Shown here in pieces: positions 3,624 through 30,013 of a stretch of 64,000 nucleotides of DNA. The notes under the pieces are model-generated. The model saw only the letters and a list, made by a program, of their open reading frames with translations. It had not been told where the DNA came from and made no database searches. The stretch's first letter is position 1. Every line of letters begins with the position of its first letter. Made by a program: the position numbers and the translations under genes. Source of the DNA: an uncultured virus (IMG/VR IMGVR_UViG_3300031992_001727) (taxonomy: Duplodnaviria; Heunggongvirae; Uroviricota; Caudoviricetes). The stretch is from the IMG/VR virus record IMGVR_UViG_3300031992_001727; one strand, given 5' to 3'.

Positions 3624-4103
3624 ATGACACAGACGTTGATTGATATGAGCCGCTTGCTGGCGATGGACGCGGTCATCATCCTAGTTGGGATGATGTGGGA
3701 CTTGGCCGTGGGCATACGCAAAGCGCAAGAGCGTGGCGAGGCGAGGACAAGCTACGGACTTGCTCGCACCGCTACGAAGATGCTGACGTACTATGGCGCA
3801 TTTGGCATCGGTGCTTGCATTGACGTGCTTCTGCATGTTGGAAGGGTGTGGCAGCTTGTCGGACTTTCCGACACACTGGAGAGCGTGCCTGTGGTTGCCA
3901 CGCTGATAGCGATATTCCTCTGCATCATAGAAGGTATTTCCATTTTGGAAAATGCTGACACGAAGGCGAAAAAACGCATGAGCAAGGTGGCCGATGTGGC
4001 ACTGACCGCTGCCAGCAATACCGAGCTGGTGGAGCTGCTGGCAAGGGCTATCACGGCAGCGCAGGAGAACACGAAGAGCAAGGGAAATGGCAATGGTGAA
4101 TGA
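3624..4103 (+). CDS. Holin (phage holin 4-like)
   Basis: Three hydrophobic segments, D..GIRKA..RGE.RTSYG...T..K, SILEN; directly upstream of endolysin; start moved to ATG 3624. Confidence 0.75.
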   Translation: MTQTLIDMSRLLAMDAVIILVGMMWDLAVGIRKAQERGEARTSYGLARTATKMLTYYGAFGIGACIDVLLHVGRVWQLVGLSDTLESVPVVATLIAIFLCIIEGISILENADTKAKKRMSKVADVALTAASNTELVELLARAITAAQENTKSKGNGNGE

Positions 4104-7986: not shown

Positions 7987-8424
7987 TTATAGGTGTATTA
8001 CTTTTTCGTCGTTGATGACTTGTGTGATGATTGATCGGAACTGGTCGTTGTTGTGTATGAGTGCGATGCATAGGGATGTGAACGACACCCGGAAATCTGT
8101 GTCGTTGTTCTCAAATGCGTACTTCAAACTTGTTTCCAGCCCTTTACCGCCGATGGCTGAAACCATATCTGCTTCTGTTGTAATTCCGATTAGCATCATT
8201 GCTGAGAACATCTGTTTCAGTTCGTCAAACTTCTCCCTGACTTGTCGCTGGGATGGTGTCTCTTTGAATAGTTCTCTTAACTCATCGGTTCTCGCTTCAA
8301 TCGTTATTGTATCATTCAATTTGTTTGGTGGCGATGTGAGTTTGTCGGCCTCTGTTCCGAGGTCTACTTTCCCGGCATAGACTACTGGTTTGTCGCCGAT
8401 GAAGATTTCTTCTTTGTCTTTCAT
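7987..8424 (-). CDS. Hypothetical protein
   Basis: ORF from MKDKEE, ATGA overlap with radical SAM stop. Confidence 0.55.
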   Translation of the reverse strand: MKDKEEIFIGDKPVVYAGKVDLGTEADKLTSPPNKLNDTITIEARTDELRELFKETPSQRQVREKFDELKQMFSAMMLIGITTEADMVSAIGGKGLETSLKYAFENNDTDFRVSFTSLCIALIHNNDQFRSIITQVINDEKVIHL

Positions 8425-9362
8425 TTTTTGTTGAGATATTGTGCGCATGTGAAGCCTTTGCGTGGGCGGAAGTCACGGAATGCGCAGGTGATGTATAGTG
8501 CTTTCTGGTTGGCCCAGTGCGCCATGTCACGTTGCCATTGCGGAATGTTCTGGACGAGCGACGTGAGGTCGAGCATGGGCTGTGCCTGGCAGCGCACCTT
8601 GCGGTCGTAGCGTGGGTGCCTCCAGTGCTCTAGGCGGCTCAGGCACTCGTCGAAGTCGCCGTGTAGCATGGTATAGAGCATCACTCGGCCATTGTAGCCA
8701 TGCTGGCGCAGAAGCGTGATTGCTCGGTCGCAGTCCTCGACTTGTGCTGCTGTGTCGCAGCCGAAGCGGATGTACTCGATCCAGCGCACGCGTGCCAGCA
8801 GTGCGGCCATGTCGTCGGTGACTAGGCGTGCGTCCATTGCCTGGTTGAAGTCTACCCGCCATCGGTGATTGACGATTTTCTCGATTTGCTGCAAGCCGTA
8901 GTCGCTGGCGAGGATGTTGTTGTCCATGAGGAAGAGGTTTGTTCGCCCGTCGATTGCGATTTGCTCTACGTCCATGTATGGACGGATTTTGCCCTCGGCC
9001 TTCGGGACCACGCACCATGGGCAACGCCGGATGCAGCCTCGCGTGAGAAAGCCGATGGCCCAATTAGGCTTCCAGTTGATGGCAAGCGAATAATCAGGTT
9101 GGCATCGGTCAATCTCGTCGGGCAGGTTGTGGTAAGGTGCTCCCCAGCCCGTGCCGCCGCGAACCACCTTGTCGGCGTTGATGGGGTACTGGTACTGCGG
9201 TATGAATGTGAACACCTTGCTGTGGTAGCAGATGTCGTAGTGCTTGAATGGCGAGTAATATTCAACAGAATCGCCCTGTCGTTTGTGCCATGTGGCGCAT
9301 TTGAGCAGGGCGAGGTTGGGGAAGTTGCGGTGGCAGTCGTCGGGTAGTATGGCGATGTTCAT
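8421..9362 (-). CDS. Radical SAM (Fe-S oxidoreductase) protein
   Basis: TRGCIRRCPWCVV (CxxxCxxC), FPNLALLK, DNN, DFNQAMDARL. Confidence 0.85.
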   Translation of the reverse strand: MNIAILPDDCHRNFPNLALLKCATWHKRQGDSVEYYSPFKHYDICYHSKVFTFIPQYQYPINADKVVRGGTGWGAPYHNLPDEIDRCQPDYSLAINWKPNWAIGFLTRGCIRRCPWCVVPKAEGKIRPYMDVEQIAIDGRTNLFLMDNNILASDYGLQQIEKIVNHRWRVDFNQAMDARLVTDDMAALLARVRWIEYIRFGCDTAAQVEDCDRAITLLRQHGYNGRVMLYTMLHGDFDECLSRLEHWRHPRYDRKVRCQAQPMLDLTSLVQNIPQWQRDMAHWANQKALYITCAFRDFRPRKGFTCAQYLNKK

Positions 9363-9631
9363 AGAATGTTTCGGATTTCGATGCCGTGTTGTTTGAGGAT
9401 GTCTCGCCATCGCAGTATGACTTCTGCCCGGTCTTCCTCGTCCTCGCACTGCGATAGTTCGTTGGCGAATCGGACGAGCATCTTTGCCTTGTCAAGTGTC
9501 TCGTCGGCTTGGTCATCGTAATCTTCGGCCTCGGAGAGCATAGCCTTTGACTGCTGGCGCATGGCATAGAATAGCCCGATGTTCACTCCGCAGCAGAGGA
9601 TGTTGAAAATTGAAAGGATGAGTGTTGTCAT
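9359..9631 (-). CDS. Hypothetical membrane-anchored protein
   Basis: N-terminal hydrophobic helix, 90 aa. Confidence 0.55.
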   Translation of the reverse strand: MTTLILSIFNILCCGVNIGLFYAMRQQSKAMLSEAEDYDDQADETLDKAKMLVRFANELSQCEDEEDRAEVILRWRDILKQHGIEIRNIL

Positions 9632-15144: not shown

Positions 15145-15597
15145 TCAGAACAGCGACATTTGCTCGCCGCTCTGGTATTCTTTCTCTATGTCAACAAACA
15201 GCTTCCTGAAAATCTCAGTCAGCACACCGACAACTATGCTATTCCCGGCCATTTTGTACTGCTGGCTGTTGCTGATGCCAGCCGCCTGGATCTTGTCGAT
15301 GTCCTTGTCATCGCAATCCATCAGTCTGTAGCACTCGCGCGGCGTCAGCTTGCGGATGTCAAACCGCAGCGTGCGTGTCTCCCCGTCGGGCTTGGTGAAG
15401 CGGAATCGGCAGTCGCCCAGCGGCTCAATCTGCGTGTCCTCGGTCAGTTCAAACTCGGTGTATTCGTATTCGTCTTTCATTGTCATGATAAAATTGTTGT
15501 CTTTCCAGTTGCCCTCGGCATTCAGTGTCGGGCATATTGCGGTCTGCATTATCCCACCACCGAAATAGCCGTGAGGCAGTCTAATTATCGCACTCAT
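15145..15597 (-). CDS. C5 cytosine DNA methyltransferase, separate C-terminal polypeptide (last module + motifs IX and X)
   Basis: IRKLTPRECYRLM (IX), QQYKMAGNSIVV (X). Confidence 0.9.
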   Translation of the reverse strand: MSAIIRLPHGYFGGGIMQTAICPTLNAEGNWKDNNFIMTMKDEYEYTEFELTEDTQIEPLGDCRFRFTKPDGETRTLRFDIRKLTPRECYRLMDCDDKDIDKIQAAGISNSQQYKMAGNSIVVGVLTEIFRKLFVDIEKEYQSGEQMSLF

Positions 15598-17670
15598 AGT
15601 ACTCCATGATTGGGTTATCTTTCAGCACGGTCGACAGCACATTGCTGCAACCGTCAGTCCTAGGCTCCAGGCAGCGGTGACGGAAGTTCTCCCGGTCGCC
15701 AACCACCTTGTGTATTGCTCGCCCCTTCTCCGTCCTGACGTATGCACAACAGCAGCGAGTCTTTGCCGACGCTTGTGATGGCATTTGCGACTGTGCCACT
15801 GCCGATTTCGATGCGCTGTGGCAGGTTGCAATAGTTGCGTGTGCGCATGGCGCAGGTGATATGTGTTGTGTCATTGCTCATCGTCCTCTCTCATGATGCC
15901 AACAACCATAAACCCGCCCATCGTCTTGACTGTTGGAAACTCGGTGTTGCTGTGCGTCTCGATGGCACAAGCATCGCTGTAGCCCCGTGTCCCCCCCCCT
16001 AATGCTGGCCGTGAACGTCCGGCCGATGTCCACGTTGTTCGCTATTCTCAGTCTCAATTTCTTCATCGCATTCAATTATTGTCGGCACCAGATTCCCCCC
16101 CCCCACTATAGTCGCACAAGCAGGGGGCGATGCCATGTCGGTCATAGACCACCCCCTTGCCTGGCCTCTTGCGTGTTGGCTTGATATAGAAGCCCAGCAC
16201 CCTTATCGTCTTGTCCGCATTCTTCATATTCTATCAGCAAGTTAGGAGATTTGTAGTCAGTGGCTATCAATGTCGGTGACAGCTGCATGAGTTGTACTCT
16301 CCCGAACCTTTTGAATGGGTCGGGCACTACAATCAGTTTCTTCATCGTCTTGTCCGCATTCTTCATACACATCTTCAAACACCAGCAGTTCACCCATGGT
16401 CGCAGTCAAGGCAGGGCATATCTTACCCCCCCCTTGCACACGCCCACGGCGAAACTTGCTGTCAGGATAGTTCAGGTCGAACACCGACCTCGGCGGGCAC
16501 GTCACATATCCCCTGGCCGTCGCCTGCGGAATCATCAACTTGAACTGGTTCATATTCAATCACACCAACGGCACAATACTTCTGCCCCCCCGCTTGGAGT
16601 TCATCAGATTGCCGCCGCTGGACTTATAATAATTACTCTTGATGCACGCTGCAACACCCGCATCGTCCACGTTGAGAAGTATTCTCCTCTTCATCCCATT
16701 CTATCACCATTTGTTGTCGGTCGCTCATCGGGTTCGCGTTCACGCAAAAGGCGATGCCCTTCACGCTCACCATGTCCTTGTCGCGGTCACCCACTTTCTG
16801 CATGATCAATCTTCTCATCAACCCCTCCATGATGCGGCACTGCCGCGTCCATCTCCCATTCTATCACATAGATTGCCGTCGTCCCCCCCCTCTGGCATAT
16901 CATCGCCGGCGATAGGTCAACAATGTGGTGTGTCAAGTCATTCTTGTCCCCCACATTGCCCCGGCTGTAGCCCAGTATGCGGCGGGTCTTCGGTGTATTC
17001 ATAAAGTTCTGTCACAAAGTAGAGGTTGTTGTGGTTGATGCGAGCCTTGATTGTGCCAGCGATGGGCGACACCACCATGTTGTAGGCATCAATCCACCAC
17101 CCCCCCCTAATCGGTATCTTCCCCTCGCGCAGCATCTGCTCCAGGTTCTTGCATCGTGTCACCATATACTTCCAGTATCATAGGTTCTCGGTTACCCCCC
17201 CCGTTTGTGGTCAATGCCGCAGCGATGCCGCGTGTGTCAAACACGTTGCCGGCATAATTCCTCCATGCTACATACTTGGGGTTGATAATGTTCGTTATCA
17301 GCATCATCTTCGGTGTCTTCATACACTTCCACTATCTTGCGCTCGTCGCCATGCCCCCCCCGACACACCGATGGGCAGATGCCGTCGGTCAGGTAGGCCC
17401 AGCCGTTGAGCTGGCTGGTCGGGTAGACGTGCAGGAATGGTCGGATTTCGGGTCTGTCCATATCTCTAGCAAAAAATTCCCGCTGATGTGCTGCACCAGC
17501 GTGTTGTAGCATTCCTTGTGGTAGTGCGAAGTGACCGCCTTGGCCACCTCTCGCCCCCCCCTAACAGCCATCGTCACTCGCTTGAGCATAGATGTGTCCT
17601 ACAAAGTTGTCGGTCTTTCTGCCCCCCCCGCATCGGCCGGTGAGGCTGACCGCGATGTCACTTTTTTTTT
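15581..17670 (-). other. Array of about 14 short overlapping module ORFs in the methyltransferase variable (TRD) region, with G7-G10/A9 homopolymer tracts
   Basis: Module starts (minus strand) at 17589, 17461, 17322, 17165, 17002, 16830, 16694, 16553, 16366, 16227, 16066, 15881, 15874 and 15597. Shared G(I/V)(A/C/S)P(T/A)L-like core. C-runs on + strand at 17622, 17554, 17354, 17195, 17100, 16883, 16585, 16426, 16095, 15991; T9 at 17662. Confidence 0.85.
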
Positions 17671-19458
17671 GACGGTGAACTTGTAGCCGCGCTTTTTCTT
17701 CATCTCCTCTAGTGTCGACAGCAGCAACCCCTCGATGCGCTCATGGCTCAAGTAGTACTTGCGCTCCACTTCGTCCTCCAGCACATCGTCAAGGGTCAGC
17801 GTCAGTTCCTGCGGCTTCGGGAACTGGAACGACTGCTCCACATCATCACGGATGCTGACCAGGAAGATACGTTCTCGGTTTTGTGGTGTTCCAAAATCCT
17901 TCGCGTTAAGCACCTGATGGTAGTTGCGGTAGCCCAGCCGCTCAACCTCGTCGCACCACAGCTGGAACATCGGCAGGAACTTCTTGCTCACCATCGCCTT
18001 CACGTTCTCCAGCAACAGATACCGTGGACGCTTGACCTTGATGGCATCACGCACGTTCCAGATGATGCTCGAGCGTGTGCCGCTGCCCTCGGTGAAACCG
18101 TGCTGCAACCCAGCCGAGCTGATCGACTGGCAGTTGTGAACTATCGCTCCGTTAGCAGTATAGGAGTTGTCGCCTTCAACTTCCATATTATAGACTTCAA
18201 TGGTTCGCACCTCAAAAATCGGCAGTTTAGAAAGGGGATACCAAACATAACCGTCATCATAGAATGCTTTGTCCTGCACGTCATTGTCGGCTTTCCAAAC
18301 GACATTGTATGTGTCTTTCTGATTGACCGTCCTCCCCTCAATGACATATTTGTCGGGTCTTGCTACGCGATACAGCGAAAATGGTCGATTAAAAACCTTT
18401 GCTGCACATTGTGCGATGCCAAAGCATAGCTCTCTACTAACCGATGTTGTCTTGAAATGCTTACCAATCATGCAGCCATCGCTATCCATATATCCATCAA
18501 TGAATCTTCTGAGCAAGTCAACTGGAAGCGACATTGTATCTCCGTCAATGCGTTTGCCATGGGCATAGTAGCCATACCTGCCAACAAACTCACAAAGTTC
18601 TTTCTTGTGAATCTTCATTTTATAGCATGTTCGCTCTTTGATAACATTATAGTGGAAGCCACAATCGTCAGCGGCTGCGGTAAGGCTCCCCTTGTTGCGG
18701 TCGCTGCAACAAATTATCACGCTGTGCATCTTGTCGCTCTCGCGCTTCCAGCCGTCACCGATATATCTTCCCATCAGATACCAGAAACTCCCATTGCCCA
18801 AAAGCTGCGCCAAATCATTCACCTTGCGCCCATGTCCCCACTGGTTGTCAATCGTCCCATCCCATTTTGGCAACTCGGACTTTGTGTTTATGGCATAACC
18901 TAAATAACAATTCTTGTCCAAGTTCTTCGCCTTGATCCATTCTGGTTCGTGGAACATTCTCTCCGAGCCATGCCCAGCTCGGTACATTCTGCGCACATAG
19001 AAAGGGTGTTCCTCGGTGCAATAGATAATATCTGTTCCCATACCATAAATTTTCACCATGTTGCCTATGTAGGCATGGCGCATCGGTGTGACAACAGGCA
19101 TGAATCTGTTTTTGTGGGTCAGAACCATGTCTCCTGCCTTAATCTCCTCAATAGGTTTGTACCCTTGCTCGGTAAGAACAAGCGTACCAGCCTCAAAGCA
19201 TGGCGTGCTGTAAGTCAACAGGTCAAAGTCCGGCACCTGCGCCCAGTCTATCTTGGTCATGTCGCCCAGGTTGCGGTCGGCCCACTGCGGGAACAGTGCG
19301 TCATGTGCCTGGATGGCATACTTGTCTATCTCGCTCCAGGCCACAAGTTCATAGGGGATGCCCAGCCTGTTGAGGGCGAGACACTGGCTATCATAGCCCG
19401 AGCACAGCGTCACCACCCGCAGCGGGTTGCCGTTGTCATAAATTTCTTTTCTAGCCAT
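17599..19458 (-). CDS. C5 cytosine DNA methyltransferase, N-terminal part (motifs I-VIII), intein-containing
   Basis: LCSGYDS (I), SEID, STP|CQ (IV), LLENV (VI), LNAKDFG.PQNRERIF (VIII). Confidence 0.92.
   Translation of the reverse strand: MARKEIYDNGNPLRVVTLCSGYDSQCLALNRLGIPYELVAWSEIDKYAIQAHDALFPQWADRNLGDMTKIDWAQVPDFDLLTYSTPCFEAGTLVLTEQGYKPIEEIKAGDMVLTHKNRFMPVVTPMRHAYIGNMVKIYGMGTDIIYCTEEHPFYVRRMYRAGHGSERMFHEPEWIKAKNLDKNCYLGYAINTKSELPKWDGTIDNQWGHGRKVNDLAQLLGNGSFWYLMGRYIGDGWKRESDKMHSVIICCSDRNKGSLTAAADDCGFHYNVIKERTCYKMKIHKKELCEFVGRYGYYAHGKRIDGDTMSLPVDLLRRFIDGYMDSDGCMIGKHFKTTSVSRELCFGIAQCAAKVFNRPFSLYRVARPDKYVIEGRTVNQKDTYNVVWKADNDVQDKAFYDDGYVWYPLSKLPIFEVRTIEVYNMEVEGDNSYTANGAIVHNCQSISSAGLQHGFTEGSGTRSSIIWNVRDAIKVKRPRYLLLENVKAMVSKKFLPMFQLWCDEVERLGYRNYHQVLNAKDFGTPQNRERIFLVSIRDDVEQSFQFPKPQELTLTLDDVLEDEVERKYYLSHERIEGLLLSTLEEMKKKRGYKFTVKKKVTSRSASPADAGGAERPTTL
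18133..19200 (-). mobile_element. Intein with LAGLIDADG homing endonuclease (356 aa)
   Basis: Starts CFEAGTLV, block B TEEHPF, YLMGRYIGDG and FIDGYMDSDG, ends VHN followed by extein Cys; more AT-rich than flanks. Confidence 0.92.
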
Positions 19459-19483
19459 TTTACTCTTTTGGATGATGGATTTA

Positions 19484-19663
19484 TCATTTGAACAGCGAAA
19501 CACCGTCAGAGGTGCGTTTCTGTTCCATTCTCGCCCATTTGCGCCCCACGGCCACGATGTGGCGCAGCGCGTTGGCGATGGCCGCGTCGCTGTGGCGCAT
19601 GCCTTGCAGCACCCGCGCGGCGCGCACTATCGTGTCGTAGTCTCGGTCGCTGATGGATTTCAT
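19484..19663 (-). CDS. Small hypothetical protein (not in ORF track)
   Basis: MKSISDRDYDTIVRAARVLQ..., 59 aa, between dnaB and methyltransferase. Confidence 0.5.
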   Translation of the reverse strand: MKSISDRDYDTIVRAARVLQGMRHSDAAIANALRHIVAVGRKWARMEQKRTSDGVSLFK

Positions 19664-24112: not shown

Positions 24113-24994
24113 TCAGTCTTCAAAGGGTAAATCGTTGACTGACGGATCAATCGGTTGTGGCTGTTCGTCAGTTGGTTTGTCTGTCTGTTCGCTGAATTCC
24201 GCATCCTCGGTCGCACGCTCCTTGGCACGCTCGGCCAGTGCATCCTTTGCGGCATCCTTGTCGTTGTCGACGTAGGTGTACTCGTTAGGGTTATATTGCA
24301 CCGACTGGTCGGCGGCAATGGCTTTCTGAATCTCTATCGACTTGGGTGCGGTACCATCGTTGAGCAGTTGTTTGATGACTGTCTTCAACGACATCTTGTG
24401 GCGGTCAGTCACCCACTTGCTGTTGTTATGCACCCATTCCGTTCGAGACTTATACGTCTCGGAATAACGCATGGCGTGTTTCTCAATGTCTTCAACTGTC
24501 ATGTAAAGCGTCTTTGAGAAACCATTTAGCAACTTGAAGTATGCCACATAACCGATTATTGGGAGTTTGTCACGGTCAGCGGTCTCATTCCACTCAAACT
24601 TGATGCGCCCTGTTAATCGATCAATCTTCTTCAACTCACCCTCACGCACATCTGTTGCGTTGATGTCGCTGTACATATTCGTGCGTATGGCTAGTTGCTG
24701 GAATCCTTTAAACCCCATCTGGAATTGCCCCACAGTCATTCCGGATTTTTTATCCTTGTATGGAATGACGTAGGCCATGCCCAGGTTTTTGTCCAGCGGC
24801 AATTCCAGCGCGGTTGCTGTGATGGCCGCGTTCATGATGGTGACCGGTTCGCACTCCTGCAACTTTTTGTCGTTAGAAACAAGAGCAGTGAGGTTGGCCA
24901 CAAACGACTGAGCTTTCTCTCCCAGCACGTCACGCAGGTAATCCTGCGTGTAGTCCATGCGCATCAGCGCATTGAAATCTTTTAATGAACTCAT
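24113..24994 (-). CDS. recT: RecT-family single-strand annealing protein
   Basis: LG.AYVIPYK, QFQMGFKGFQQLAIR, M.LKTVIK. Confidence 0.88.
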   Translation of the reverse strand: MSSLKDFNALMRMDYTQDYLRDVLGEKAQSFVANLTALVSNDKKLQECEPVTIMNAAITATALELPLDKNLGMAYVIPYKDKKSGMTVGQFQMGFKGFQQLAIRTNMYSDINATDVREGELKKIDRLTGRIKFEWNETADRDKLPIIGYVAYFKLLNGFSKTLYMTVEDIEKHAMRYSETYKSRTEWVHNNSKWVTDRHKMSLKTVIKQLLNDGTAPKSIEIQKAIAADQSVQYNPNEYTYVDNDKDAAKDALAERAKERATEDAEFSEQTDKPTDEQPQPIDPSVNDLPFED

Positions 24995-25040
24995 AAAAAA
25001 AATAATTGAAAGATAAAATAAATAAGAAAAATGAAATAGT

Positions 25041-25108
25041 TGGCGCGGCGGGAGTCGAACCCGCAATCGGCATGTAACACACAACCACGCCTATCCGTTT
25101 TGCGCGCC
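25041..25108 (-). ncRNA. tRNA-like structured element
   Basis: Minus strand GGCGCG...GCGGGTTCGACTCCCGC-CGCGCCA: acceptor-like stem + canonical T arm, no proper anticodon arm. Confidence 0.5.
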
Positions 25109-26381: not shown

Positions 26382-26405
26382 TGTCGCATGTGTTTTGGTT
26401 AATAG

Positions 26406-26476
26406 CAGGGCGAGATGGAGTCGAACCACCGTCTGCGGTTTTGGAGACCGCTGTTCTGCCTCTAAACTATCGCCCT
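26406..26476 (-). tRNA. tRNA-Trp (CCA)
   Basis: AGGGCGA/TCGCCCT acceptor stem, GCGGT-CTCCAAA-ACCGC anticodon arm, GGTGG-TTCGACT-CCATC T arm; 3' CCA not encoded. Confidence 0.9.
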
Positions 26477-28858: not shown

Positions 28859-30013
28859 ATGATTAAGACACCCACAGCAAGATTTGTGTTCGACCGTAAA
28901 CACGTTGCGACACGCAGCACGGCAAAAGGACGGAAGAAGGGGCTGGTGCAGATAGAGATCATGTATCAGCGCAAACGCAGGTATATTACCACTGGCATCA
29001 AGCTGTTCAAGGAGCAGTGGGCTCAAGACAAGGAGAACCATGTCGTTAATTCGGCATACGCTGATGAGTACAATGAATCGCTGCGGTTGCAGATGCAGTC
29101 GGTGCTTGGAGAAATTAACAGACAGGTAGAGTCTGGCTCGATAGATATAAAAGCGATAATGGAAACTAAGCATGACACAATGAGTATTGTCGAGCTGTCT
29201 GAACTTGTCGAGCAAGAAAGGCCGTCGCTTTCAGATGGAAGCAAAAAAATGTATTCTTCTGTCCGGAATGTCTTTGATGCTTTTGGCAAATTTAATGATG
29301 TCAGCCTTGTTGATGCCTCTCTTGTCGCTGAATTCGATTCATGGATGATTAAAGGCGGCATATCGGGAACAACTCGCAAAGTGCGTCTGTCGCATCTGCA
29401 TATGCTTTTGAAGTTCGCTGTAGCAAAGGGACTCATAGCGTCTGACCCGATGGCCGGATATAAGTTGCCTAAAGCAAAATCAAAGGAGATTGTCTACTTG
29501 ACCGATGAGGAACTTGAACGCATCGCACAAGTTGAGCTGCCCAGCAGGTTACTCATCACTAGAGACCTGTTCTTGTTCCAGTGCTACACTGGCATGGCTT
29601 GGGCGGACATCGCCACGCTGGATCGCTCAATGATTCAAACCCAAGGAGCCGATACGTTCATCAGTCGCTCAAGGGAGAAAACCCATGTGCATTACAGGAC
29701 AAAACTGCTCACCCCGGCTCTAGATGTGATGAAACGGCATAACATGAGCGTACCGATGCCTGAGAGTTATTCAAAGTACCACAAGCAGCTGCATAAGGTT
29801 ATCAAGCTTGCCGGAATAGACAAGAATGTGAACTCGCATGTTGGCAGACATACGTTCGCCACATGGGCATTGTCGCATGGTGTGCCAATCGAGATTGTCA
29901 GCAAGATGCTTGGTCACACGAAGATTGAGACCACACAGATTTATGCGAAGGTATTGGCGAAAGATGTTGAGGCTCAGTTTGACAAATTGGATGAGTTGTT
30001 TACTGAGAAATAA
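28859..30013 (+). CDS. int: Tyrosine integrase with Bacteroidetes arm-binding domain
   Basis: RDLFLFQCYTG, HVGRHTFAT, LGH....TQIYAK; N-terminal VFDRK...RRYITTGIK. Confidence 0.92.
   Translation: MIKTPTARFVFDRKHVATRSTAKGRKKGLVQIEIMYQRKRRYITTGIKLFKEQWAQDKENHVVNSAYADEYNESLRLQMQSVLGEINRQVESGSIDIKAIMETKHDTMSIVELSELVEQERPSLSDGSKKMYSSVRNVFDAFGKFNDVSLVDASLVAEFDSWMIKGGISGTTRKVRLSHLHMLLKFAVAKGLIASDPMAGYKLPKAKSKEIVYLTDEELERIAQVELPSRLLITRDLFLFQCYTGMAWADIATLDRSMIQTQGADTFISRSREKTHVHYRTKLLTPALDVMKRHNMSVPMPESYSKYHKQLHKVIKLAGIDKNVNSHVGRHTFATWALSHGVPIEIVSKMLGHTKIETTQIYAKVLAKDVEAQFDKLDELFTEK

Follow-up and report, generated by a model that had tools for sequence, protein, structure and literature searches.

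A split C5 cytosine methyltransferase with overlapping recognition modules and poly-G tracts in an uncultured caudoviricete

In the 64,000-nucleotide DNA of an uncultured virus of the Caudoviricetes (IMG/VR record IMGVR_UViG_3300031992_001727; this whole stretch is hereafter called the window), positions 15145 to 19503 of the minus strand hold a C5 cytosine DNA methyltransferase that is split over separate open reading frames (ORFs) and is predicted from its motifs to form 5-methylcytosine. Its target-recognition region is distributed over a series of short, overlapping ORFs, most of which carry a poly-G tract. We consider it probable, at roughly 0.6, that the locus encodes a phase-variable, multi-piece anti-restriction methylase of a temperate gut phage, in which the recognition modules are translated separately. 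The architecture, its conservation, the variation in tract length and the shuffling of modules are well supported by the observations given below. A full-text literature search recovered no published description of this architecture; each of its component parts has a known counterpart, in the multispecific methylases of phages, in split C5 enzymes, in methylases whose phase variation is driven by repeats and in the poly-G contingency loci of phages.

Architecture of the split locus

Comparison with Pfam divided the profile PF00145 between two minus-strand ORFs. Positions 71-234 were matched, in two stretches, in a 634-residue ORF (17599-19503; E 1.2e-45) with motifs I-VIII, here termed the N-part or alpha, while positions 265-322, corresponding to motifs IX-X, were matched in a 150-residue ORF (15145-15597; E 8e-09), the C-part or beta, in which they follow the last recognition module. 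This bears out a first-pass annotation of the window, which had placed motifs I-VIII and IX-X in separate ORFs. The recognition module of the C-part encodes its GGG motif without a homopolymer. Within the C-part there is also a junction-like DEYEYTE (15455-15479) that is 76% identical over 25 nt to the fourth of the junctions described below (16990-17014) but has no ATG embedded in it; it resembles the remnant of a former junction through which the frame now continues, and a recombination event at this site would join module 4 in frame to motifs IX-X.

The motifs of the N-part extend over 1.9 kb because an intein of 357 residues (18133-19203, minus strand) is inserted immediately 5' of the catalytic Cys of the PC motif (TP/C...HN/CQ). 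The insert matched Hint_2 above the cutoff (E 1.6e-08), PDB 2lwy, a bacterial intein-like domain (E 1e-06), and weakly Intein_splicing and LAGLIDADG_3. It combines this Hint fold with an N-terminal Cys and a C-terminal HN followed by a nucleophile (C...HN/C, from the ORF), and on direct reading the PC dipeptide of the methylase is restored only once the intein is removed (TP/intein/CQ). The middle of the intein appears to be a degenerate LAGLIDADG-like segment. Gaps of about 1.06 kb and 1.07 kb in the tblastn alignments of two related loci (L015 and L054, respectively) suggest insertions at the same place in related methylases. Downstream of motif VIII, the alpha tail contains an A9 tract (17662-17670, minus strand), beyond which the frame that matches the post-VIII segment of the relatives lies at -1, as seen in a three-frame view against continuous homologs. 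Homopolymers are prone to slippage in replication and transcription, and slippage of either kind at this A9 tract could yield two alternative core tails.

Between the N-part and the C-part, 13 short minus-strand module ORFs tile the gap. Together with the one in the C-part they place several tandem recognition domains between motifs VIII and IX, the arrangement of multispecific enzymes, and they do so at the position that the first-pass annotation had named. Its further claim that the modules are recognition domains agrees with their homology to the tandem domains of single-chain multispecific relatives. The domains are not contained in one polypeptide: there are 14 frame changes, with a start codon at each. 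The 14 junction ATGs, curated from a three-frame reading and a table of junctions, lie on the minus strand at 17589, 17461, 17322, 17165, 17002, 16830, 16694, 16553, 16366, 16227, 16066, 15881, 15784 and 15597. In 13 of these the ATG stands at +1 relative to the frame of the preceding module, a frame that is open for 23-93 codons upstream; the sole exception, likewise noticed in the first pass, is the ATG at 17461, which stands at +2. The preceding frame terminates in two hydrophobic residues and Glu, followed by Tyr, Trp, Cys or Asp. The spacings between successive ATGs are 128, 139, 157, 163, 172, 136, 141, 187, 139, 161, 185, 97 and 187 nt, nine of the 13 being 1 modulo 3; three of the four deviant spacings (141, 161 and 185) hold an out-of-frame poly-G tract and become 1 modulo 3 once that tract is set to its in-frame length.

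Past the junction the preceding frame stays open for 3-41 codons, approximately as expected for random sequence, and the module tail beyond the junction thus looks unselected. In the frame of the ATG itself a stop is found upstream, at a median of three codons in the window, and in the third frame a stop lies one codon downstream at nine of the 14 junctions, five of these being a TGA that overlaps the start codon (ATGA). The own-frame stop, the third-frame stop and the new ATG thus make each junction a point at which all three reading frames are reset.

The same arrangement was sought in other loci with a junction motif of two hydrophobic residues, E, an optional residue and Y, D, H or N, with an ATG at +1 that opens an ORF of at least 20 codons. 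In the arrays of 12 loci, 13.35 kb in total, this motif was present 35 times, whereas 323 kb of control sequence taken from these loci contained it 27 times, which is an approximately 30-fold enrichment. Among the 35 array junctions an own-frame stop lay at most four codons upstream in 23, and ATGA was present in 30. At the DNA level an exact 14-nt junction consensus had 16 matches in the window (with up to three mismatches; 3.7 expected), but it was matched exactly in only one other locus and is too degenerate to serve across loci. A broad scan for overlapping ATG-initiated ORFs was uninformative, as many were also recovered from control regions. Tracing of frames by tblastn and of segment support was too coarse, or was confounded by the near identity of L060, L061 and L063.

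Poly-G tracts, related loci and variation between phages

Ten poly-G tracts, ranging from G7 to G10 on the coding strand, all fall within 1.64 kb of the array (15991-17629), and no G or C run of at least seven is found elsewhere in the 64-kb window. They encode Gly-Gly(-Gly) or Arg-Gly-Gly inside the modules. The first-pass annotation, although partly right about the locus, had noted neither these tracts, which in our reading are the actual switches, nor the A9 tract and the intein.

All tracts and modules are on the minus strand, and the upper coordinate of each module is that of its ATG. Tract 1 (G8, 17622-17629) lies in the alpha tail or first recognition segment. Modules 1 (17389-17589), 2 (17237-17461, opening at the +2 junction), 3 (17107-17322), 4 (16938-17165) and 5 (16787-17002) each contain an in-frame G8 tract, namely tracts 2 (17554-17561), 3 (17354-17361), 4 (17195-17202), 5 (17100-17107) and 6 (16883-16890), respectively; module 3 is homologous to the 'TNGGGNRQP' domain of single-chain relatives. 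Module 6 (16633-16830) is devoid of a tract and is 59% identical to a module of the related locus L035. Module 7 (16462-16694) has an out-of-frame tract 7 (G7, 16585-16591), with its canonical end in the adjacent frame, and module 8 (16257-16553), the most widely conserved module type, has an in-frame tract 8 (G8, 16426-16433). Module 9 (16142-16366), again free of tracts, lies between exact 24-nt direct repeats. Tract 9 of module 10 (15999-16227; G10, 16095-16104) and tract 10 of module 11 (15874-16066; G9, 15991-15999) are both out of frame. Modules 12 (15660-15881) and 13 (15581-15784) have no tract, and the ATG of the latter precedes the homologous part by about 30 nt. Hence six of the nine tracts inside modules are in frame and three are out.

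Each tract was changed by one base in a script and the resulting ORF was read. One tract length allowed the module to run from its ATG to its canonical end, and the other two lengths truncated it; a single-G change thereby truncated or restored only the tract's own module. The exception is tract 2, where one additional G carries the start at 17589 into the frame of module 2. Every break inside the window modules coincides with a tract. In single-chain relatives (n=29) the same Gly motifs are encoded by mixed codons, the longest G run being 2-4 in 15 of 15 motifs, so the homopolymers are not imposed by the protein sequence. In addition to the G runs, poly-C tracts (C8-C11, coding strand) were observed in several related loci, at 4777 in L043, 2107 in L067, 487 in L023, and 5598 and 5787 in L015 and L016; they encode Pro-Pro-Pro in one module type, which implies that the switches are not confined to poly-G.

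A search with the C-part recovered 68 viral loci. The majority of these are ordinary single ORFs of 350-731 amino acids that lack homopolymers and encode as many as about eight tandem recognition domains, whereas 16 have a short C-part frame with G or C tracts directly upstream and almost none elsewhere in the locus. Eight of 19 loci from bacterial genome bins also bear tracts; these bins are labelled Bacteroidales and Clostridia, though the binning of phage contigs is unreliable. The first-pass annotation had regarded continuous ORFs in homologous loci as a sign that the breaks in the window were errors. Most relatives are single-chain; staircases could be read out in six loci (L035, L043, L060, L061, L067 and L081, the last with eight tracts). 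A quick tree built from the core places every one of the 11 tract-bearing loci in the same clade of 22 rows (Shimodaira-Hasegawa-like approximate likelihood ratio test value 98), where they are interleaved with single-chain forms. The window modules are 33-60% identical to modules of other loci and to in-chain domains of single-chain relatives, and at this protein identity the synonymous sites of cross-locus module pairs are saturated. The phage GenBank collection yielded a single weak match of 126 nt.

Some loci depart from the window in the way the pieces are divided. L009 and L069 are intermediate in form, with a core gene followed by a multi-domain chain ending in motifs IX-X, and they carry tracts as well as a stop/start overlap. 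The piece with motifs IX-X in L043 and L067 is an ORF of 77-92 amino acids without a recognition module, which would call for modules in trans there. One junction start in L035 is TTG rather than ATG; at 3868-3880 of the same locus the core ends in G9 followed by an in-frame TGA, the same frame resumes with a conserved segment, and no tract length removes the stop. A 515-residue single-chain relative in L077 (3657-5204) holds two in-frame tracts (G7 and G8) and could be a further intermediate, in which a slip would turn the whole enzyme off. Finally, seven stand-alone proteins of 62-95 amino acids in public predictions match module 8. Four of them have a Met just before the conserved 'IPQATx' start, three begin further in, and six share the domain end. 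Their tails differ, as does the order of modules around them; tails that are nothing but out-of-frame readings of the following module would be expected to differ once the neighbors have been shuffled.

Direct comparison of close relatives shows differences in tract length. L060, L061 and L063 are near-identical loci, and between the first two the tract length differs at homologous modules such that one is in frame and the other is not, in both directions. The window was similarly compared with contigs X3, X7 and X8 from three other studies; this comparison uses assembled contigs, among which a further one, X1, may be the window's own source. Lengths differ at no fewer than five of the ten tracts (15991, 16095, 16425, 17354 and 17554): tract 9 is shorter by four letters in X7, and tract 10 by one letter in both X3 and X7. 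Thus, as in contingency loci, homopolymers of at least seven bases in coding sequence are enriched at the locus, vary in length among close relatives and toggle the frame. Certain sequencing platforms are prone to errors in homopolymer length, which could suggest an artefact of assembly or sequencing. The junction shifts, however, lie away from homopolymers, the ORFs across the rest of the window are long and intact, the same array is present in the related contigs from the three other studies, and an independent Logan assembly contains the entire stretch in a single contig, even if that run may be the window's own source. An artefact therefore has a negligible claim as an explanation.

The same contigs reveal that, at the junctions, related phages have swapped, lost or acquired modules, in agreement with the exchangeability that had been proposed at first. 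An exact 24-nt direct repeat occupies successive junctions (16205-16228 and 16344-16367), and X7 and X8 lack the 139 nt between its copies, so that exactly one module, module 9, is skipped. In X7 two more modules are skipped between a second pair of junction repeats, in X3 and X8 modules are replaced, and contigs from other studies contain 276 extra letters at 17589/17597. Such events raise the alternative that the array is mainly a silent store of cassettes, from which recombination between junction repeats fuses a chosen module to motifs IX-X, only this fusion being expressed. The deletions and replacements just described would fit this, as would the variable module order of the stand-alone homologues and a RecT-like annealing protein encoded at 24113-25084. 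The 25-nt repeat that joins junction 4 to DEYEYTE of the C-part, with a spacing of 1535, is also in register for an in-frame fusion. A silent cassette, however, would have no need of a start codon of its own, of stops specific to a frame or of a poly-G switch; in no instance did an observed deletion join a module to motifs IX-X, and deletion is irreversible. We accordingly regard a silent store as improbable.

Proposed translation and assembly of the modules

From these features we infer separate translation of the modules, their assembly in trans and an ecological role. The locus would represent a multispecific C5 methyltransferase dismantled into a core (motifs I-VIII with the intein), a C-terminal piece (the last module with motifs IX-X) and 13 overlapping mini-genes with one recognition domain each. 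Translation would restart at each module in whichever frame the ribosome arrives. The G runs would gain or lose bases in replication, each run turning its own module on or off, and the free modules would bind to the core and the IX-X piece, serving as interchangeable subunits for specificity. Progeny would then carry differing sets of methylation specificities, which might serve as a hedge against hosts with different restriction systems, since classical restriction favors methylation and methylation-dependent nucleases punish it. By analogy with other phage methylases, the locus may protect against many restriction systems. The more specific proposal is that of free, exchangeable specificity subunits comparable to HsdS, made from overlapping mini-cistrons with frame-resetting junctions and each phase-variable through its own poly-G tract, which would be a previously undescribed organization of C5 enzymes; this is put forward tentatively, at somewhat less than even odds.

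Several features favor separate translation. The start codon at every junction, the frame-specific stops and the start context together speak for each module being a separate cistron. An element resembling a Shine-Dalgarno (SD) sequence precedes only two of 25 confident window genes, whose starts are A/T-rich and of the ATGA type, like those at the junctions. Furthermore, in a single chain a slipped tract would cost the enzyme motifs IX-X and all of its specificities, whereas with separate modules only one is silenced; separate translation thus makes sense of the tracts. It also entails that modules would have to work in trans, alongside the core and the IX-X piece. A complex model of the L043 core, its IX-X piece and a free module scored 0.87 (best control 0.02), with a predicted local distance difference test value of 76 for the partner and agreement between runs in at least 80% of contacts; the mark that it passes was reached by 116 of 157 solved complexes and by two of 215 mismatched pairs. 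In this model the last strand of the module would pair with the first strand of the IX-X piece, and a conserved loop would touch the region of motif VIII. According to PMC3404938, fragments of monomeric C5 enzymes complement each other and natural two-piece C5 enzymes exist.

The first-pass annotation had left open whether the enzyme is multi-polypeptide or assembled by frameshifting. The former fits best, given the start at every junction and the stop 1-4 codons upstream in 23 of 35. In the latter, a +1 shift at every junction would join the modules into one chain, or internal starts combined with shifts would give shorter chains that end in motifs IX-X. The regular +1 register at 13 of 14 junctions is what such shifting would produce; an SD-like GGAR often lies immediately upstream of the junction, and in L043 shifting at the final junction would produce a linker to motif IX whose length is found in single-chain relatives too. 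The junction core, however, is NAT followed by GAA, GAT or GGT, which offers no slippery site: the P-site tRNA could not re-pair in +1, and the A site holds neither a stop nor a known hungry codon. In line with this, inspection of the window junctions did not reveal the features of prfB-type programmed +1 frameshifting. Moreover, shifting could do without an ATG, yet the junctions retain one (with a single TTG, in L035); the frame into which the shift would lead is closed by a stop 1-4 codons upstream, and fourteen serial shifts would have a vanishing yield. Frameshift assembly is thus unlikely.

Other forms of recoding were also considered and rejected. The window encodes a single tRNA, a normal tRNA-Trp, which leaves no quadruplet-decoding or suppressor tRNA as a candidate. 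Recoding of stop codons or the like was discarded because the other window genes are long and intact under table 11 and because the frame changes are not of a kind that stop recoding could fix. Nor do changes in tract length link the frames into one N-to-C chain, as a gain or loss of one G merely truncates or restores a module, tract 2 alone reaching the next frame.

A number of points weigh against separately translated, freely docking modules. When 73 tracts in 22 loci were called automatically, 24 were in frame, which is the one-third expected without selection; the calling is noisy in that it takes the longest upstream frame, sometimes the tail of the previous module, and mis-scored at least three window tracts. 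L035 contains two breaks that are not due to a tract, namely the TGA that immediately follows its first tract and a -1 step ahead of the final module, and module 12 of the window is about 10 residues shorter than its relatives. The passing L043 model may attest compatibility rather than binding, as the fold has been solved as a single chain and a pass is to be expected. The covalent recognition module of the window C-part would compete with free modules. Finally, when M.SssI was divided into fragment pairs, with the cut within the distal part of the variable region or immediately ahead of motif IX, methylation was absent or barely detectable (PMC3404938), a result that by analogy speaks against a free IX-X piece.

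The in-frame fraction and the L035 breaks, together with the -1 step that the alpha tail requires at the A9 tract, could also be taken to mean that this is a decaying multispecific methylase, whose frameshifts and tracts are damage and of which only the core and C-part, or nothing, works. Against decay, the same design recurs in many diverged loci, where modules that are only 33-60% identical in protein are otherwise open; the module breaks in the window are all at tracts; the junction shifts go in one direction with a start codon at each; and the homopolymers stand where relatives have mixed Gly codons. Decay is hence quite unlikely, and the view of the regular register as a conserved design, already taken in the first-pass annotation, is upheld.

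If the modules are indeed separately switched subunits, one phage genome could give rise to about 2^9 to 2^10 methylation phenotypes, with slower variation being added by the gain and loss of cassettes at junction repeats, and phage populations would hedge their epigenetic identity module by module. The host range of phages in densely populated gut and rumen habitats, in which classical restriction occurs alongside methylation-dependent restriction, might be affected. C5 recognition domains would in that case be able to serve as detachable subunits, a point of relevance to the engineering of targeted methylases and to the as yet unanswered question of how a single core is combined with many domains in multispecific enzymes. 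Gene callers will meanwhile go on labelling such loci as pseudogenes or hypothetical mini-proteins.

Known systems and phage context

The closest known counterparts are the multispecific C5 methyltransferases of Bacillus phages (M.SPRI, M.Phi3TI, M.Rho11sI and M.H2I), which are said to have been treated by Trautner et al. in 1996, a work cited in PMC12707154. Phage multispecific methylases are a classic form of counter-defence and, to our knowledge, have so far been seen as fixed single chains. Like the Bacillus phage enzymes, the present locus is phage-encoded and has tandem recognition domains between motifs VIII and IX, each with a presumed specificity of its own. Those enzymes, however, are one polypeptide without homopolymer switches, whereas here each domain has a separate overlapping ORF, mostly with a poly-G tract.

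The division of the core is reminiscent of two-piece C5 enzymes. In M.EcoHK31I the gene for the small polypeptide sits in another frame within the larger gene. This enzyme resembles the present one in that motif IX is supplied by a small separate polypeptide (PMC3404938), but its specificity is single and fixed, and it lacks both repeats and an array of modules. Similarly, M.AquI carries motifs I-VIII and IX-X on separate polypeptides, with the split in the variable region (same source), and in the window, too, these motif sets are in separate, adjacent ORFs. Its two-gene form is matched exactly by L009 and L069, with stop/start overlaps. M.AquI nevertheless consists of two pieces with one specificity, whereas the present design has up to 15 pieces, and neither core piece contains the recognition module in L043 and L067.

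With regard to switching, the locus is comparable to the Type I (hsdS) and Type III (mod) phasevarions, where slippage of simple repeats switches the expression or specificity of a methyltransferase; in Type I systems a separate specificity subunit also works with a common catalytic core (PMC7383803 and PMC7394358). Whereas phasevarions are N6-adenine systems of bacteria in which a locus usually has one or two repeats, the present locus encodes a phage C5 enzyme and contains ten tracts. Hypermutable homopolymers as a means of bet-hedging are also known from phage contingency loci, including receptor-binding poly-G tracts of Fletchervirus and loci of T2/T4, and a poly-G tract within a Bordetella phage BPP-1 methylase gene is mentioned in passing (bioRxiv 10.1101/2025.10.21.683753). 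In the accessible part of that preprint such tracts gate single whole genes, mostly for host recognition, and no array of separately gated methylase modules is described there.

In the window, the methylase locus neighbors genes for a DnaB-type helicase, a replication initiator and the RecT-like protein; further off are the terminase, portal and tape measure genes (45-62 kb) and an integrase. These neighbors and the integrase place the locus in the replication module of a temperate phage. A look-up of sequencing runs recovered near-identical DNA in ruminant gut metagenomes. A tRNA-Trp(CCA) gene (26405-26476) lies near the tyrosine-type integrase (28859-30013) and may mark a prophage end or attachment site. 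The window also encodes a radical SAM domain protein at 8421-9449 on the minus strand (phrog_9298, E 1.6e-89).

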